A DNA stretch of 20,061 bases from a virus: the UHGV virus genome UHGV-0175271. One strand, 5' to 3'. Both the position numbers and the translations under genes were made by a program. Position 1 is the stretch's first letter. Each line of letters starts with the position of its first letter. Positions 20-8,696 of the stretch are shown piece by piece. The notes under the pieces were generated by a model. That model did no database searches. It was not told where the DNA came from and saw nothing but the letters and a program-made list of their open reading frames with translations.

Positions 20-922
20 TTATGAAAGCTCAAACACCTTGCCTTCCTTGGGTACGACTGAACAGGGATCCTGATGAATGATGACATCTGATCCCGGGAA
101 ACGCCGTAAAATTGCCTGCTCAACCTGTTCAGCCACTAAATGCGCCTGAACGAGCGGCAGATTATCTTCCATTTCCAAATGAATCTGAATAAAGCGGGTC
201 GGCCCTGACTGCCGCGTACGGAGATCGTGAGCACCACTGACGCCCGGCCATGATGTCACGATGTCAAAAATTTCCTGACGTTCTTCATCGGGTAATGCGC
301 GATCCAGTAACGACTGCACGGCATCATAACCCATGCGTAACGCGCTATATAAAATATAGATGCCAATCCCCAAAGCAAACAACGCGTCTGCACGATGCCA
401 GCCGTACCAGGCCAGACCGAGCGCCACGAGAATCGCACCGTTCATCATAACATCAGACTGATAATGAAGCATATCCGCCCGTACTGCCTGGCTTTGCGTC
501 CGCTTCACCACCCAGCGCTGAAACGAGACCAGCACCACAGTACATATCAGGGCGATAATGGTAACCACAACCCCCACGCCGGGTTCGTTCATCGGCGTCG
601 GTGTAATCAGATGCTGGATACCCGTTAAAAATAAAAACAACGCCGAACCGGAAATAAACATGCTTTGCGCCAGCGCAGCCAGTGATTCCGCTTTGCCATG
701 ACCAAAGGTATGTTCATCATCCGCGGGCTGCAGCGAATAGCGCACCACTAACAGGTTAGTGAGCGACGCGGCAATATCCACCAGCGAGTCGACCAGGGCC
801 GCCAGAATACTCACCGACCCGGTATACCACCACGCAAAAATTTTGATCAAAAGTAACAGCGATGCCATCACTGTCGCGGCAATGGCCGCCCGACTGACTA
901 ACCGCCCATAGGATTGATTCAT
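20..922 (-). CDS. fieF: Cation-diffusion-facilitator Fe(II)/Zn(II) efflux transporter FieF (YiiP)
   Basis: 300-codon ORF with multiple hydrophobic TM segments and a cytoplasmic C-terminal domain. The N-terminus [17 protein letters not shown]... and overall sequence match my recollection of E. coli FieF closely but not identically. ATG at 922 has a GGAG Shine-Dalgarno about 8 nt upstream; the track ORF extends to an upstream in-frame ATG at 937 that lacks an RBS. Confidence 0.9.
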
Positions 923-1003
923 AAACACTCCTGCCATTTCATGCCGGTAGTATAACGGATGGTGTAAGACAATCAGTGATTATGACGATGACAATTTACA
1001 GGC

Positions 1004-1030
1004 AAAAAAAACCCCCACGTCATGTGGGGG
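1004..1030 (-). terminator. Rho-independent terminator (minus strand): CCCCCAC-ATGAC-GTGGGGG stem-loop followed by U8
   Basis: Plus strand reads A8 (1004-1011), then 7-bp GC-rich stem 1012-1018 / 1024-1030 with a 5-nt loop. On the minus strand this is hairpin plus an 8-U tract, placed about 80 bp upstream of the fieF start and downstream of the cargo operon. Confidence 0.65.
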
Positions 1031-1124
1031 AAGACAGGGATGGTGTTGTTTTACGACATGTAACATACTGAATAAATTATATTTATATTAATATCTCCGT
1101 CCACAAAACGTCCACATCGACCAT

Positions 1125-1153
1125 AAGCCCCAGAGTCAATTCTGGGGCTTTTT
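1125..1153 (+). terminator. 10-bp stem-loop (AAGCCCCAGA / TCTGGGGCTT, 6-nt loop) with T-tract on the plus strand only
   Basis: Perfect inverted repeat 1125-1134 / 1141-1150 followed on the plus strand by TTTCTC. It sits 7 nt beyond the stop of the minus-strand gene 1160-1870, where the minus-strand reading has no U-tract. Either a 3' stabilising stem for that mRNA or the terminator of an unannotated plus-strand transcript. Confidence 0.4.
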
Positions 1154-1159
1154 CTCAAC

Positions 1160-1870
1160 CTATTTTTTGAATTTATTCTGAAGATACTCGACTAAGTACT
1201 CGAAAAGTTTACTAATTGGTGTTGAGATCTGCGCCAATGTATTATTCTTCTCTTCTGCTTCTTCTTCCCTAAACAACGCCCGCATTAAAGCAATCGCAAG
1301 CGTTAACCCCACCCCAAGAATGAATGCAATGAGAGTTATCATGGGACTAATAGATAACCAGTTTGTCGTTTCCAAAAATTTTTCTATGAGGCTATTACGC
1401 TGCTGGGCTGCTTGAGTACTAAGTTCTCTAGCCGTTTCACGAGCATGATACAAACTCTCAGGGGGCGAAGGTTGAGCCGTGAAAACAAACTCACTAATTG
1501 CTTTGGGTGAAGACTCATCTACAACCCTCACCATTGCCTCTTTCACATCCTGCTTAGTTTTTAGCATATTGACAGTAAGGCATACCGACATGATTGCGCC
1601 AATAAGCAAAAACAGAGCGCTTGCCCCTACAGTAAAACGAAAGAGCCATTTACGCATATTGCGTCTATCTTCATGGTTTTCAGCACGATGACGCACATTC
1701 TCAGTACTTTCAGGTAAATTCGCTAAGGGAAATGACGGGTCTGGCGGCCCGACCACTATAGGTTCGCCAAATTTAATTGATTCTCCACCTTCATTTTTTG
1801 TCTCATTATGAGTTGGTTGAGTGCCTGATGTTGCTGTATTTGGGGAATTGTTAGATGATTCTTTAGACAT
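1160..1870 (-). CDS. Two-TM membrane protein of unknown function (second gene of the cargo operon)
   Basis: 236-aa ORF with ATG start. The N-terminal ~80 aa are hydrophilic and low-complexity (Ser/Thr/Asn/Pro/Glu-rich), followed by a basic patch RRNMRKW and TM1 (FRFTVGASALFLLIGAIMSVCLTV), a ~100-aa predicted periplasmic segment, TM2 (ISPMITLIAFILGVGLTLAIALMRALF) and an acidic/basic C-tail. Strongly AT-rich: hand counts on two 60-nt samples gave about 27% and 40% GC, against about 55% in a tail-gene sample. No family recognised. Confidence 0.6.
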   Translation of the reverse strand: MSKESSNNSPNTATSGTQPTHNETKNEGGESIKFGEPIVVGPPDPSFPLANLPESTENVRHRAENHEDRRNMRKWLFRFTVGASALFLLIGAIMSVCLTVNMLKTKQDVKEAMVRVVDESSPKAISEFVFTAQPSPPESLYHARETARELSTQAAQQRNSLIEKFLETTNWLSISPMITLIAFILGVGLTLAIALMRALFREEEAEEKNNTLAQISTPISKLFEYLVEYLQNKFKK

Positions 1871-1875
1871 AAAAA

Positions 1876-1900
1876 AGCCACCGAATTCAATTAGGTGGCT
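1876..1900 (-). promoter_or_regulatory. Intergenic stem-loop (AGCCACC / GGTGGCT, 11-nt loop) sequestering the downstream gene's Shine-Dalgarno and abutting its ATG
   Basis: 7-bp inverted repeat 1876-1882 / 1894-1900. On the minus strand the 3' arm contains GGTGG, the only SD-like sequence for the ATG at 1870, and is followed by U5-6 immediately before the ATG. It therefore looks like a partial intrinsic terminator or attenuator plus a translational block between the peptidase and membrane-protein genes. Confidence 0.4.
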
Positions 1901-1937
1901 TCATTTTAGTTTGAAAAGCATTCAGTATCTATAACTG

Positions 1938-2423
1938 TTATAGATAACCTAGATTTTTCATGCGCCAGTACATAGCTTCTTCTGATACGTCAAAGCGGCT
2001 AGCTAATGCTGAAACCGCATATACTTTTTCTCTATTGATCAACGTAGCGATCGCATCTTCTGGCATAAGAAGTTCAGCAGCGAAGCGATTAGCGTCTTTT
2101 TCTTCAACATAATTCCCATCATTCCAAGCGGGGTTTGAGTATTCCCTCAACTTCCGCCCGTTACGGGTATGCCCAAGGACATGATGCCCAAGCTCATGAG
2201 CTAGCGTAAAACGAATCCTGCTATGAGGATCTGAAGTGTTATATGAGATTACATAGCGACCTTCAGGTGTAATCTCAGCAAACCCACATTGATTTGAATT
2301 GCTTCCATCAGGAACCAACGGTGTTACTTGAATTCCCATTTTGTGTGCAATCAGGTCTGGTCGCACTGGCAAGCGACCATCCCAATGGGAATTAAGCACA
2401 GCTTTTACTGCGTTAAATTCCAT
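1938..2423 (-). CDS. ImmA/IrrE-family (M78 / DUF955 / COG2856-like) zinc metallopeptidase, stand-alone with no HTH domain
   Basis: 161-aa ORF with ATG start and an AGGGAGA SD 8-12 nt upstream. Contains the family-typical RFTLAHELGHHVLGH (HExxH) zinc motif followed by the conserved E..ANRFAAELLMP segment. AT-rich like its downstream partner. Its stop codon lies inside a 21-bp perfect palindrome (1926-1946). Confidence 0.8.
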   Translation of the reverse strand: MEFNAVKAVLNSHWDGRLPVRPDLIAHKMGIQVTPLVPDGSNSNQCGFAEITPEGRYVISYNTSDPHSRIRFTLAHELGHHVLGHTRNGRKLREYSNPAWNDGNYVEEKDANRFAAELLMPEDAIATLINREKVYAVSALASRFDVSEEAMYWRMKNLGYL

Positions 2424-2673
2424 CGTTCAAGTCTCCCTTGTCATCGGTATGATATTTGTATTAAGCCGAAACAGCTTCCGTAAAACAAAATGTACTACAT
2501 ATTTGTCCAGTAGTAACGATTTTCATGCAAAAAAACATTGACTTTTCCGTAATGAACTGAATTTTAATGATAAATATATTATTCCATTCAGACCGCCGTC
2601 TATATACACCACCCCATCTTAAATGTCAACAAAATTATCTCGTTGCTTTTAAAATTTAAGTCGCCCATCGGGA

Positions 2674-2946
2674 AACCATCACAACCATCACCTCCCTTAA
2701 AAACACAACTTAACCATATGATTATCATGAATAAATATTGTGACGGTAAAACCATCACAAAACGTAACGCAAACCATCACACCCAATAAATTCAGTAAGT
2801 TATAAAACAGAGTTGTGATGATTTAAGACCGTCACACTGTGATGCTGTTGTGATAGTTTTGTGATGGTTTCCAATACGCAAATTTAATTATATATCATAT
2901 AGATATATGCCATTTTTAAATCTTGTGACGTTTGTGATGGTTTTCC
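2674..2946. repeat. Iteron-like array: at least 12 copies of an 8-9 bp motif (TGTGAYGG, or its complement CCRTCACA) in both orientations around AT-rich cores
   Basis: Copies read as AACCATCAC/CCGTCACA on the plus strand at 2674-2682, 2683-2691 (perfect tandem), 2750-2758, 2772-2780, 2829-2836, with a degenerate copy at 2712-2718. Copies read as TGTGAYGN at 2739-2746, 2814-2821, 2838-2845, 2849-2856, 2860-2867, 2924-2930, 2933-2940. GGAAACCATCACAA (2671-2684) is the exact inverse of TTGTGATGGTTTCC (2859-2872). A very AT-rich tract lies at 2873-2920. No ORF of 60 aa or more in the region. Confidence 0.75.
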
Positions 2947-3570
2947 GATAGCCCCCATAACTTTTTGAAAAAATCAGAACTGGTCAGAAATCACCCTGAT
3001 TTGTTGGTGGTTTTGTATATCTATCTGTTAGTGACTTGGACACTGGAGCATGCATGTTAATGCAGGTATGGCGATGGTTCAGGCTGTGCAAAGTATTTCA
3101 GTTGCGCATTTCACTGCCATTCCGTGCCAGAGCACGTCAGTTAAGGCCTGGACACTTTCCCCACTTACGTGATCCCGCAGAGATTGTTCCGACAAAAGTC
3201 ACGTAATCGCTGTTAACCCCGCATGAAACCCGGCACCGGCATTTTTCACCCACAGCCGGTAATCGCACAAAAACTGAAATCCTTGAAATCTGTTTCACAT
3301 ATTTCAGTCGGTGAACTACCGCCAAAGCCCCAGCGCTGGCACAGTCTGGCGATGTGTTTTGTACCCCCAGAAAAACTGAAATCATTCTCAACACGAAAAC
3401 CGCAGGCGGGTGCGGTGTAGCGCCGTTTTCGTCACTTCCGCCGTTATTTCGTCGTGGCAGGCTGCATCAGCGCCTTGCTGTGCTTTTAAAGCTAATTAAG
3501 TTGGGATGGAGCGGGTGTAGATACTGGCGGCGCTCAGAATGCGTCTGGTGAGGTCTGGTGGGTGCGATAA

Positions 3571-3589
3571 AGCCCGCATGACGCGGGCT
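3571..3589 (-). terminator. Stem-loop (AGCCCGC-ATGAC-GCGGGCT) just downstream of the last tail-operon gene; weak U-tract
   Basis: 7-bp stem with 5-nt loop lying 11 nt past the stop of the 567-aa gene. The minus-strand downstream sequence is UUUAUCG, so it is at best a weak intrinsic terminator. Confidence 0.35.
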
Positions 3590-3599
3590 GGTTGAGAAA

Positions 3600-5303
3600 T
3601 CAGGCGATAATGTTCTGATACTTGCTCCGAGTCTGCCCGGCTTTCGTCGCCGTCTGTGTGAACGCGGCTGCATTAGTTGGAGTCCCAACTGTGGGGTGCG
3701 AATGGTTCGCACATTGCTGCGCCAGCTCTGCCAGTAAATCAATGGTGTCCAGCATCATGGTCAGGGCGTTGATACTCTCGCTGCCAATATGGACTGTTGC
3801 CCCCATGACCTGCTGACCGCCAGCGGCCACTGATTTACGCAGTGCGGCAATCTTCTCTGTCAGGCTTTCGCCAACCTCCACGGCTACAGCACCGCCCACT
3901 TTAGTGGACTGCTGTCCTGCTATGTCCGTTTCTTCGTTTCCTTCAATACTGGCCAGCCTGTTACCTTTCACCGCCTGGCTATAATCACCGGCGCTTACCT
4001 GCTGGATGGCTCCGGCCAGCAGTGTGGCGGTTCCCAGTACCGTGGTTTTGTCCGTGGCTTTCACCGTGGTTTCACGGCTGACCAGTTCGCGCTGTTCCGT
4101 ATCGGCTTTTACGGTTCGCGCCATCGATGTTTCACTGATGGTTTGATCGGTCTGCCTTACCCAGTCTCCAGCCTGAGTCACCCTCTGGGATACTTCTTCC
4201 CTCTGCTGCTGCAATTGCTCACCGGGTTTAACGTCCGGCAGGCTGGTACCATCCGGCAGCGTCTGCCTGATAAAGGGTTTATCCGGTCTGCCTCCCGTGA
4301 ATGCAACCTCAACCAGCGTCCCTTCTGGCGGAAACTGAAACATACCTGAATCATTCCCGGCCATTGGCACCGGCAGCGGCACCGCTGAGTAAACAGGCGT
4401 CTGATTGTCCGGGTTTCCGTCTGCGTCAAGCAGCTGAACGTCCACGGCATAACGTGGGCGGAATGGATCGGCAAAATTACCACTTTTCACGGGTTCAGTA
4501 TGTGCCACCACTCTGGCCATCTTTGGCAGATGAAGCCCGGAAGCCAGTTCCGGATAATGGCTCTCAATCTGTCGTTGTGTCGGTGTTTTCTGGAGGGGGC
4601 TGCCTGTGACGCGGTTCCGGGGTGTCCAGGTGATAGTCATCGTGTCATTTGTAAGATGGACTTTGGTGACCCGTTCACCGTTAAGCTCAACGCCGGGTCG
4701 TATCGTCTGGATCACCGGTAACGTTATGGTATTCCCGCCAGCAGCCCCCTGGCTGAACTCTGCCGGCACTTCGACCGGACGACCGGTAAACAGTGACTTT
4801 TCAGCACCGCCGACGTAAAGCGAACCATCAGGCAACTGGTACCAGATGTAATCCTGGATACTGAATGCCCTGCCCAGGTTGTTCAGCAACTGATAGCCGG
4901 TACCGTTATGGGTGAAATGGGGGATCGGAGTATCGCTGTAAGACACATCGGGTACACTGACACCGATCCCGCTGTTTTCCGTCAGCCAGCCGGCCACATC
5001 CCTTAATGTCGGGTGCTGAAATGAACATGGCCACATCCTTTCAAAAACACCGGCCAGCTCACGAATGAACAGACGCTGATAACCGTTTTCAGCTGGTTGT
5101 GAACGTTCAACATAACCGGTAAACCAGCGCAAAAGCAGGTCGGTATATCCCACATCCAGCCGCACCAGTTTCCCGGTATAATCAGTGGTTGTCTCTGCGG
5201 TAATAAATCCCCGACCGCAACTGTTAAGCTCCAGTACCAGGCTGGCATCAGCCAGATGCACTTCATCCGTTGAAAGGTAAAGACGTTTAACTGGTTTCAT
5301 CAT
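3600..5303 (-). CDS. Phage tail/baseplate protein, unassigned (candidate hub/gpD-like component by elimination)
   Basis: 567-aa ORF at typical phage GC. Its ATG overlaps the upstream gene's stop (TAATG), so it is translated as part of the tail operon. No motif recognised; the assignment rests only on hub, spike and tube-initiator functions being otherwise missing from the module. Confidence 0.5.
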   Translation of the reverse strand: MMKPVKRLYLSTDEVHLADASLVLELNSCGRGFITAETTTDYTGKLVRLDVGYTDLLLRWFTGYVERSQPAENGYQRLFIRELAGVFERMWPCSFQHPTLRDVAGWLTENSGIGVSVPDVSYSDTPIPHFTHNGTGYQLLNNLGRAFSIQDYIWYQLPDGSLYVGGAEKSLFTGRPVEVPAEFSQGAAGGNTITLPVIQTIRPGVELNGERVTKVHLTNDTMTITWTPRNRVTGSPLQKTPTQRQIESHYPELASGLHLPKMARVVAHTEPVKSGNFADPFRPRYAVDVQLLDADGNPDNQTPVYSAVPLPVPMAGNDSGMFQFPPEGTLVEVAFTGGRPDKPFIRQTLPDGTSLPDVKPGEQLQQQREEVSQRVTQAGDWVRQTDQTISETSMARTVKADTEQRELVSRETTVKATDKTTVLGTATLLAGAIQQVSAGDYSQAVKGNRLASIEGNEETDIAGQQSTKVGGAVAVEVGESLTEKIAALRKSVAAGGQQVMGATVHIGSESINALTMMLDTIDLLAELAQQCANHSHPTVGTPTNAAAFTQTATKAGQTRSKYQNIIA

Positions 5304-6545: not shown

Positions 6546-7122
6546 TTCCAGGCACCTCCGGCCACACAATTTCCGGCGCATCTTCCGGTTGAATACGGTT
6601 CAGTAAAACGCGGTATTTTTTCCATGCGGTAAGCAGCAGTGCTTCTTCTTCGGTCGCCATGTCTAAATCTACGGCATCCTGCAATGTGGCAATGGCATCA
6701 TTGGCCTGTTTAAGCAGTCTTTTCTTTTCTGCATCTGCCTCGCTGACTAATGCAGTTCGCATGGCCTCCGCATCATCCACCCACGCCTTTCCATTCCATT
6801 TTTGCCAGGCATTAGCCGGGGCTGACGTGGTTGTCCCTTCCGGGTAAGCACCTGGCTCGGTGATCACCAGTTCATTACCGTTTTCCGTGTCAAACACCAC
6901 CTCACCACGATGATCCTCACGGGAAATCCATCTTTGCTTCTCTGAATCAAAAATTGCCACAAACCCCGCTTTGATTGCCGGTGGCTTTATTGTGGTGCAG
7001 TTTGCTGGCAGTCCGGTATGCGCAGGAATAAAAGCGTCACCGGAACCAATAAATTCATTCGTATCGGAACGCAGGTTATAAACAATAACTGTTTGATCGG
7101 TTTCACTCATTTTAAAAGTCAT
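6535..7122 (-). CDS. Tail fiber assembly protein (Tfa / gpG-like chaperone)
   Basis: 195-aa ORF immediately after the fiber gene (TAATG overlap). The N-terminal region (YNL...F..PAHTGLPAN.T..KPP..K.G....FD...Q.W....DHRG..V.D..NG) is typical of phage Tfa proteins. Confidence 0.75.
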   Translation of the reverse strand: MTFKMSETDQTVIVYNLRSDTNEFIGSGDAFIPAHTGLPANCTTIKPPAIKAGFVAIFDSEKQRWISREDHRGEVVFDTENGNELVITEPGAYPEGTTTSAPANAWQKWNGKAWVDDAEAMRTALVSEADAEKKRLLKQANDAIATLQDAVDLDMATEEEALLLTAWKKYRVLLNRIQPEDAPEIVWPEVPGNVA

Positions 7123-8696
7123 TATGCGAGTCTCACTATGTAGTTAAATGCAATGTTCTTAACGGTCGTTTCTGCGTTACCCGACGCGGCGACGGTAATG
7201 GTGTGATTGTGTGCGCCAATGGCTACGGTATGAGAGTGAGCGCCAATACCTACGGTGTGATTGTGTGCGCCAATGCCTACTGTATGTGCGTGGTTTCCTG
7301 CTGAACTGGTATTTACGGTATATGCAGTACCACTTCCGCCTGCTGATCTGGCTATTCCTGAACCATCAGTGCCTCGCGTGGTAAAACCGTGTGCGTGCGC
7401 CCCTGTCGTATTTGTCGTTTTTGTGCCGTGGTCAAACGTACTCGCCGTTTTAGTACCGTAATCAAATGAGGATGTTGATTTCGTTCCCAAATCAGTACTG
7501 GATGCACTCGCAGTGTGGGCATGGGATTTATTGCCATCATCTTCAAAGGACAATACTGCGCGGCCATCTGGTTTCCCTTTGATTGTCTGGCGGCGCATAT
7601 CAGGAAGAACTCCCGATGGGTATGCAATAGCCAGTTGCGGGCAAGCCACTGGATCAAACGCCTGTCCTTGCATGATTGCGTGACGCGCCGGTGGAATATC
7701 TCTCGGCCAGGGAAGTGGCACCCCAACAGGTACAACATCACTAATGCTTAAAACCGCCAGTTCACCCAGTTCAAGATTTTTTCTGGCTTTAGCCTTGTCA
7801 TTGATATCGGCAAGGTTTGCATCCTTACGCAAAAAATCGCTGCTGGCCTGCTGTTCTCCCAGGCTACCTTTTGGCCGTAAATCCGTGATGTTGCCATCCA
7901 CATCAATGCTGGCCACAGCAAACACATAATGCTGAACCCCGTTCTGAACGTAGTCAGAAAGATTTGCAGCCACCGTGATTTTGTTCTGCACATTCCAGAC
8001 ACTGGTCAGTGTCCCTGTCCAGCACACATCCAGCCAGACTTTTACCGGCTTTGTCGTCACCGTAATATTCTGATTCGCAGCCAGTGACGCACGAAGTCCA
8101 GCCACATACCCCGTGCCTTTCGTGACAAAAAACTGATTGCCGGCCTTCCCGACCAGATAACCGCTACCAAAAAACGCCGCCGCGCCATAAATATCAATAT
8201 TTTCCAGGCGCTGGCGTTCATCCATTCCTGCCATACGCGCGGTGAAATCAATCTGCCAGGTTTCTGCCGGCGTATTGATGCCGGTTTCAGTCTGTGCGCC
8301 GTTATATTCCATCAGGAAAGAACGGGTCAGGACGTTCCCCTGCTGCCCTTCTGCAGTTTTCAGCTTCTGCTGAACAGGCGCATGAACAATCATCGCCAGC
8401 GTGCCGCTGGCCTTGTTAATCAGGCCGATCCAGTTAAACGAAAAATCGCCCACATCCGCGCCCAGCACAACGGAATGCACCACGGCATTCTCATTCACCA
8501 CACCTTTACGGCTGACCGCCTGCCGGTGAACAATCTGCGCGGCCGGTGGCAGTGTCTCGCTGCGATCAACGGGTTGTTCGGGGTTCAGCCCCGGTACGTT
8601 CGCAAAAACAAACTCGTCCAGCAGAACAGGTTCGCCAGTGGCACCCTGCAGCGCCTTCCACTGTTCAAACGCCAGTGTGATAGCTGTCTGTGACAT
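7122..8696 (-). CDS. Tail fiber protein (mosaic: P2 gpH-like N-terminal collar domain, His-box repeat C-terminal tip)
   Basis: 524-aa ORF with a GGGAGA SD. The N-terminal ~150 aa resemble the P2 gpH tail-collar domain ([19 protein letters not shown] region). The C-terminus carries four tandem HxHTVxIGA nonamers and ends ...[11 protein letters not shown], as in Stf/gp37-type receptor-binding tips. Confidence 0.85.
7185..7292. repeat. 4 x 27-bp imperfect tandem repeat inside the tail fiber gene (encodes the HxHTVxIGA units)
   Basis: Units at 7185-7211, 7212-7238, 7239-7265 and 7266-7292 translate on the minus strand to [27 protein letters not shown] and HAHTVGIGA. Confidence 0.85.

Follow-up and report, generated by a model that had tools for sequence, protein, structure and literature searches.

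A mobile phage cassette pairing a stand-alone ImmA/IrrE-type peptidase with a predicted two-transmembrane protein

Background

What does an ImmA/IrrE-type (M78) peptidase act upon when no helix-turn-helix (HTH) repressor is encoded beside it, and the gene that follows it encodes a membrane protein? The question is raised by two genes of UHGV virus genome UHGV-0175271, in the stretch of 20,061 nucleotides that was analysed here (the window; all coordinates are its positions). Our comparisons indicate that the two genes are a real, conserved and mobile two-gene cassette, which we tentatively read as a relative, in design, of the RosmerTA modules. The two open reading frames (ORFs), of 161 and 236 amino acids, are as follows.

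1938..2423, minus strand: stand-alone ImmA/IrrE-type (M78) zinc metallopeptidase of 161 amino acids without an HTH domain (Pfam, PADLOC, PDB, alignment)
1160..1870, minus strand: predicted inner-membrane protein of 236 amino acids (Kyte-Doolittle hydropathy, alignments, AlphaFold2 (AF2) model, phrog_8096)

An initial annotation, made from the letters of the window, had described the pair as a candidate undescribed defence or exclusion module. It was correct in that both ORFs are real and both are encoded on the minus strand; several of its other claims are taken up below, where the evidence bears on them.

Conservation of the pair

The pairing can be examined from either gene. Relatives of the membrane protein number 45 among 1.84e9 protein representatives; its close family consists of 29 clusters, all named ones from Enterobacterales, and a profile search of genome contigs with the membrane-protein alignment returned no relatives. 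In every locus found with a membrane-protein homologue, the window included, the peptidase gene is directly upstream, and all 12 IMG/VR loci found via the membrane protein hold both genes. The peptidase is far more widespread, with more than 560 loci in IMG/VR. The survey of pairing covered the best 80 of these, which represent 69 distinct modules, 62 of them with a downstream ORF. In 60 of the 62 this ORF encodes an adjacent partner of 97-252 amino acids with two hydrophobic segments, and 39 of the partner genes overlap the peptidase gene. In the partners the N-tail is acidic, with a basic stretch at its end, and the C-tail has about 23-50 residues, except in one truncated copy, which is without it.

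The amino acid identities of peptidase and partner drop in step across copies (91/80, 87/73, 83/67, 64/44, 43/27 and 38/23%), which indicates that the two are inherited as a unit. Diverged pairs occur between gpA and cos, at the tin/old hotspot, in P2-like phage DC1 and Salmonella phage MET_P1_103_31, as gp1/gp2 in both Pseudoalteromonas phage ACA1 and Burkholderia phage Carl1, and beside replication genes on two conjugative plasmids, of Enterobacter and Vibrio. The DC1-type copy is present in about 50 of 5426 complete Escherichia coli genomes (~1%). The initial annotation had raised the question whether the pair is kept together and whether it resides in defence islands or prophage hotspots. 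It is indeed conserved as a unit, and its places in temperate phages are accessory or hotspot positions, next to attP or in the P2 tin/old hotspot.

Both plasmids have, directly after the pair and on the same strand, a conserved hypothetical gene of ~305 codons (L114, 4558-5472; L115, 4543-5463). Together with the pair it may constitute a three-gene variant.

The peptidase

Residues 52-155 match Peptidase_M78 (PF06114) with an E-value of 4.5e-20 and 72.1 bits, against a cutoff of 22. The family assignment of the initial annotation is thus borne out, including an intact HExxH...E site: the motif is H76-E77-x-x-H80, complemented by E108, and H76, E77, H80 and E108 are invariant across the aligned relatives. 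Among PADLOC models the best matches are capP (7e-25), which is aligned over 9-153 of 242 only, and the RmrA models (1e-16), which align over their peptidase part alone, e.g. 165-291 of 380. The closest solved structures in PDB are CapP (7T5T, 2e-5) and IrrE (3DTE, 3e-3). CapP and IrrE are ~290-300 residues long (7T5T has 291) and have a C-terminal domain, which the 161-residue peptidase lacks.

The Pfam search found no HTH family in the peptidase itself. A small HTH gene hidden beside the pair was considered and is ruled out, since the nine flanking or overlapping ORFs of 48-91 amino acids have no Pfam match even at E<=1; an adjacent HTH repressor that could serve as a substrate in the manner of ImmR for ImmA was likewise absent from the Pfam results for these small ORFs. 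The same holds for the family: at the two positions upstream of its members, HTH families are present in just 1-3 of 123 ORFs, and the recognisable neighbours there are gpA, Ogr, gpD and HP1_ORF34. Judged by these searches, the peptidase is a true orphan, with no HTH partner in the window or across the family, and the initial annotation was right both about the protein and about its neighbourhood. It shares the M78 fold and the HExxH...E zinc site with the peptidases of ImmR/ImmA (ICEBs1), DdrO/IrrE and CapH/CapP. In each of those systems, however, the target of the peptidase is an HTH repressor encoded next to it, and the pair has none; IrrE and CapP moreover carry an additional C-terminal sensor domain that has no equivalent in the window peptidase.

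The membrane protein

According to Kyte-Doolittle hydropathy, the partner has two hydrophobic segments that would be transmembrane (TM) helices, TM1 at about residues 75-105 and TM2 at about 169-201; in the AF2 model, helices span 55-119, 121-131, 137-203 and 210-233. Residues 1-54 form an acidic N-tail, predicted by AF2 to be disordered, within which the alignments reveal a conserved DPSFPLANLPES motif, and a basic juxtamembrane stretch lies between this tail and TM1. TM2 (IAFILGVGLTL) and the amphipathic C-terminal helix (~210-233) are the conserved core of the family.

These features agree with the acidic, disordered N-terminus and the two TM helices of the initial annotation. Its third element, a periplasmic domain of ~100 residues, has to be abandoned. 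The inter-TM loop has ~63 residues and is variable; the model, of low confidence (pLDDT 63), draws it as helical extensions of the TM helices. Since the loop is 0-25 residues long in most relatives (~10 in Burkholderia phage Carl1), it is not a conserved globular periplasmic domain. Given the acidic N-tail, the basic juxtamembrane stretch, the TM hairpin and the amphipathic C-terminal helix, we infer that both tails are in the cytoplasm, on the same side as the peptidase.

No match was obtained in Pfam, PADLOC (E<=1) or NCBIfam. The protein does match phrog_8096 (1.2e-15, residues 61-236), a phage protein family with no assigned function, to which the copy of phage DC1 matches at 3.8e-104.

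Expression signals

Four signals, all read on the minus strand, accompany the two genes.

2601..2629, minus strand: promoter-like site TTGACA-17 nt-TATATA (read from the sequence)
2493..2515, minus strand: operator-like palindrome TACTAC-N11-GTAGTA in the leader (sequence comparison)
1871..1902, minus strand: intercistronic hairpin with U-run, in the shape of an intrinsic terminator (fold of -15.9 kcal/mol, z = -3.1)
1127..1148, minus strand: hairpin GCCCCAGA...TCTGGGGC just 3' of the membrane-gene stop (sequence)

The most telling of them is the intercistronic hairpin. The spacer between the peptidase gene and the membrane-protein gene is 67 nucleotides long, and the U-run of the hairpin ends right at the AUG of the latter. 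The sole run resembling a Shine-Dalgarno (SD) sequence, GGUGG, is the 3' arm of the hairpin, 7 nucleotides before the AUG. The same layout of hairpin, U-run and AUG is found in seven other loci (E. coli, Kluyvera, Dickeya, DC1, MET_P1_103_31, ACA1 and L038). Among the copies there are three types of stem, GCCACC/GGUGGC, AAUCACCAUUAU/AUAAUGGUGAUU and AGCCCUU/AAGGGCU, with compensatory changes between the types in the alignment, and in each it is the 3' arm that supplies the only SD-like run (GGUGG, GGUGA or AAGGG), 7-9 nucleotides before the AUG. Such a hairpin with a buried SD-like run implies that expression of the membrane-protein gene needs both read-through of the terminator and opening of the stem. 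The claim that the two genes are co-transcribed has therefore to be qualified: they are on the same strand with a short spacer, but a terminator-shaped hairpin stands between them and read-through is required.

The promoter-like site is ~180-200 nucleotides upstream of the peptidase ATG, and a TTGACA is found in a similar context in the E. coli copy. The palindrome, ~75-95 nucleotides upstream of the same ATG, occurs in the copies of the window, E. coli and Kluyvera, and in degenerate form in that of Dickeya. Reading and folding by hand brought out this promoter and the intercistronic hairpin; the consensus promoter scan demands a T at position 6 of the second hexamer and so skipped the TATATA site, and the consensus terminator scan skipped the hairpin because its loop exceeds 8 nucleotides. 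A LexA box was sought in the window promoter and rejected: no CTGT-N8-ACAG occurs upstream, the closest candidate is without the CAG, and the only palindrome, TACTAC-N11-GTAGTA, is not a canonical LexA box. At the other end, the hairpin at 1127..1148 has a counterpart at the same place in all related loci and marks the end of the cassette transcript. The initial annotation had ascribed terminators of its own to the pair, and this hairpin, directly after the membrane-gene stop, agrees with that.

Boundaries and mobility

Is the pair part of the phage or of the host? The following features of the window bear on this.

20..937: fieF
1003..1047, minus strand: attachment-site junction overlapping the host terminator upstream of fieF, CACCATCCCTGTCTTCCCCCACATGACGTGGGGGTTTTTTTT (genome comparison, terminator scan)
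1098..1118, minus strand: direct repeats GATGTGGACG / TTTTGTGGACG, Int arm sites (match to the annotated P2 attP Int P arm)
3600..5303: baseplate/spike gene, phrog_2258

With fieF on one side and the last prophage tail gene on the other, the surroundings are those of the initial annotation, as is the base composition: the pair has a G+C content of 0.39-0.45 and is far more AT-rich than the tail genes, at 0.55-0.58.

The cassette terminator is followed by the GATGTGGACG/TTTTGTGGACG repeats and an A/T-rich stretch, and then by the att block. In the P2 record, 'Int P arm' is annotated on cgatgtggtcaatgtgtggacg directly after the ogr terminator, and an IHF site and the attP core come next. When the 5426 complete E. 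coli genomes are compared with the E. coli copy, the match in all of them starts only 113 bp past the membrane-gene stop, at the block CACCATCCC...GGGGGTTTTTTTT (~1003-1047 in the window), which is conserved in all loci. Because the repeats match the P2 Int P arm and host genomes match only beyond it, we conclude from the sequence that the pair lies inside the integrated element, immediately 5' of a P2-type attP arm, i.e. at the prophage edge where the initial annotation had put it. That the pair is host DNA, a core fixture beside fieF, is ruled out by the same 5426 genomes, which match only past the cassette and the Int arm, and also by Dickeya, where the pair follows ogr and there is no fieF.

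From the tail genes down to position 2655, the window is 96% identical to an E. coli prophage integrated at raiA. Past 2655, that prophage (L001) has an acyltransferase gene in place of the pair. Homology among the cassette copies begins at ~2520-2543 and extends through the att arm. By these comparisons the cassette is ~1.45 kb of exchangeable cargo, and it is attached to at least three unrelated phage backbones: an HP1-like myovirus (the window and L033-L037), a lambda-like siphovirus in E. coli, and P2-like phages in Kluyvera. The Kluyvera copies always adjoin fieF, and the copy of a Dickeya P2-like prophage does not. In Kluyvera, P2-type Int arm repeats GATGTGGACG...TGTGGAC flank the cassette on both sides (L009, 7075-7092 and 8774-8791), which suggests its acquisition by recombination through the attP arms. 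That a P2-type attP arm and this cassette occur together on unrelated backbones exemplifies how an integration site can take cargo along.

What was already known

Contrary to the initial annotation, the pairing has been described before. Entries of 'Peptidase_M78 + hypothetical' recur at the P2 hotspot in Rousset et al. 2022, who cloned one such pair, 'Peptidase + TM' (pFR104), from E. coli TA280 (PMC9122126), and the general design is known from RosmerTA (PMC10440598). The peptidase of pFR104 is 100% identical to gp41 of phage DC1 and 42% identical to the window peptidase. This system (pFR104; DC1 gp41/gp42; phrog_8096) belongs to the same family as the window pair, with 42% and 26% amino acid identity for the two proteins, and shares its architecture, the intercistronic hairpin and the conserved TM2 and C-terminal helix. 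It differs in its locus, which is the tin/old hotspot and not, as in the window, the attP-proximal end, and its N-tail and loop are shorter; the annotation of its membrane protein gave it one TM and placed the start codon late. The window cassette is thus an HTH-less version, with a two-TM partner, of a known design, and one that has already been catalogued.

Presentation of the hypothesis

By definition, RosmerTA consists of a zinc-peptidase antitoxin and a toxin of unassigned function. Ernits et al. 2023 regard the ImmA domain as a hub antitoxin with diverse toxins as partners, and one of these, RmrT of Gordonia phage Kita, is membrane-localised, depolarising and gives narrow-spectrum defence (PMC10440598). 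The resemblance to the window pair lies in a protein with an ImmA/M78 peptidase domain next to a small partner of no known family, the toxin in RosmerTA, in a two-gene and often overlapping operon, and in carriage on phages and mobile elements. There are differences as well. RmrA usually has an N-terminal XRE HTH, whereas the window peptidase has no HTH; no RmrT model matches the window partner; and in the window family the gene order is always peptidase first.

Our favoured explanation, to which we would give a little less than an even chance, is a RosmerTA-like toxin/regulator module without an HTH, which temperate phages and plasmids carry as mobile accessory cargo. Several lines of evidence, taken together, suggest it: the strict pairing, the translational coupling or the terminator/SD lock on the second gene, the likely location of the cytoplasmic tails alongside the peptidase, the residence in accessory hotspots and on plasmids, the precedent of an ImmA-domain antitoxin with Kita RmrT, the matches to the capP and RmrA models, the co-divergence, and the lack of an HTH partner.

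What the sequences show is the pairing, the architecture, the regulatory hairpin, and the mobility with its contexts; the toxicity, the proteolytic control and the trigger in what follows are steps that we infer. The two-TM protein would be a holin-like, membrane-perturbing effector with both tails in the cytoplasm. The cytoplasmic peptidase would keep it harmless, most simply by binding or cutting the disordered N-tail at DPSFPLANLPES or the juxtamembrane region. The peptidase would be made in excess, since the effector gene is preceded by a terminator and its ribosome-binding site is sequestered; most relatives would instead couple translation of the effector to that of the peptidase. Removal or inactivation of the peptidase, or unlocking of the hairpin, would free the effector. 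The trigger could be another infecting phage, host shut-off or loss of the element, or DNA damage in the subset of relatives with LexA boxes. Once free, the effector could depolarise the membrane, abort the infection or make the host addicted to the element.

Several points weigh against this explanation. M78 peptidases canonically cleave repressors, not membrane proteins. The AF2 model of the partner is of low confidence (pLDDT 63, pTM 0.33), and the partner matches neither RmrT nor any other PADLOC model. Its similarity to a holin profile, phrog_689, is insignificant (E = 0.0055): no single stretch passes alone, and what the two have in common is only a two-TM topology with both termini inside. 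The diverged homologue pFR104, under its native promoter, is among the tested systems without activity against a panel of eight coliphages, in a list that also holds two synthesised systems explicitly reported inactive; only three other P2-hotspot systems were reported as defensive, and DC1 lysogens, which carry the cassette, were not reported as protective (PMC9122126). In our opinion, the defence or exclusion role proposed initially is a reasonable hypothesis, with one negative test of a homologue against it.

A more far-reaching proposal, about which we are doubtful, is that modules of a stand-alone peptidase and a two-TM hairpin protein, borne by phages and plasmids, are a large unnamed class in which the substrate is no repressor but the cytoplasmic tail of the peptidase's own partner, which would make a protease-gated, holin-like switch. 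In the window clade this switch would be further locked by the terminator that sequesters the ribosome-binding site, and its use would be in abortive infection, addiction or killing triggered by damage. If the peptidase does control its partner directly, the logic of ImmA/IrrE substrates extends from HTH repressors to a membrane effector, and a two-gene cassette common among temperate phages, the P2-like ones included, would gain a function.

Alternative explanations

The main rival is that the cassette is a prophage-induction module. Like ImmA, MpaR and IrrE, the peptidase would then cleave a repressor, here the one for phage immunity, whose gene would lie beyond attP in the circular genome; such cleavage is the canonical activity of the M78 family. 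The peptidase would be the functional equivalent of Tum of phage 186, with the membrane protein as an accessory for exclusion or lysis timing, like Orf97. We consider this unlikely. The 186 SOS operon consists of a LexA-controlled promoter, tum, a partial terminator, orf97 (a membrane protein of 243 amino acids that blocks 186 infection) and a terminator. The P2-hotspot copies of the cassette occupy exactly the locus of this operon and have the same layout, p95-tum-t95a-orf97-t95b being matched by an antirepressor-sized gene, an internal terminator, a gene for a membrane protein of ~240 residues and a terminator.

LexA control recurs in a subset of the relatives. Of 75 distinct relatives, 8 (L058, L064, L074, L076, L079, L093, L097 and L104) have canonical boxes (CTGT-N8-ACAG) within 300 nucleotides upstream of the peptidase, against a background of ~0.006 per 400 nucleotides, and Burkholderia phage Carl1 (L017) has a perfect one ~167 nucleotides upstream of gp1. 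In these distant relatives the boxes point to SOS control of the module. In addition, gp1 of phage ACA1 is annotated 'antirepressor', and the ACA1 paper states that it is homologous to Tum. That homology is not borne out, because neither 186 protein is homologous to the pair: BLASTP of Tum and Orf97 returned nothing significant and ruled it out, Tum being DinI-like and Orf97 having two N-terminal TMs and a C-terminal domain. The likeness to the 186 operon is one of position and layout. The 186 operon is LexA-controlled, whereas the window clade has no LexA box.

Further, the same cassette, at 80-91% amino acid identity, is found on HP1-like, lambda-like and P2-like backbones and on conjugative plasmids, so that a single shared repressor is improbable. 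Neither HTH nor S24 repressors are enriched near family members. Finally, a substrate elsewhere would leave the strict coupling to the two-TM partner unexplained.

Non-toxic superinfection exclusion, in which the membrane protein would block entry of phage DNA at the inner membrane (as Sie, Imm or Ltp-type proteins do) and the peptidase would tune or mature it, is in our estimate distinctly improbable. In its favour, the predicted inner-membrane protein is encoded at the end of a prophage by moron-type cargo with its own promoter and terminators, and 186 Orf97 offers a positional precedent of an infection-blocking membrane protein. However, pFR104 gave no protection. The conserved parts of the protein are cytoplasmic or in the membrane, and conservation is lowest in the periplasmic loop, the very part that an incoming phage would meet and of which most relatives have almost none. 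Moreover, the tight damping of transcription and translation suggests a harmful product, and the cassette is also found on plasmids.

Last, a CapP-like switch, in which the peptidase would cleave an unlinked HTH regulator and so turn on a defence operon elsewhere, is hardly credible: CapP is the best PADLOC and PDB match, but there is no adjacent CapH-like gene or defence operon, the peptidase lacks the C-terminal half of CapP/IrrE (161 versus about 290 residues), and the cassette moves as two genes only.

Other observations

An Rfam search of positions 900-3700 gave no matches above threshold. A sub-threshold match to the Hrs1 small RNA at 1004-1051, plus strand, scores 28 bits where the gathering score is 56.4; it falls on the host terminator and the att core, and the hairpin alone probably explains it. 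Downstream of the last tail gene, the ~950 bp from 2655 to 3600 contain no convincing ORF and no Pfam match and are 96% conserved in raiA E. coli prophages.

Repeats occur just upstream of the cassette promoter in two backbones. In the E. coli lambda-like prophage there are about nine tandem CAGGAGT units (L005, ~7110-7172). In the window, a stretch of 265 bp just upstream of the promoter (2676-2940) contains eleven copies of TGTGATGG in both orientations, five exact and six with one mismatch. This array sits within the part that is 96% identical to the E. coli prophage, and its copies may be binding sites of the iteron or arm-site kind, or belong to a cos or regulatory region.

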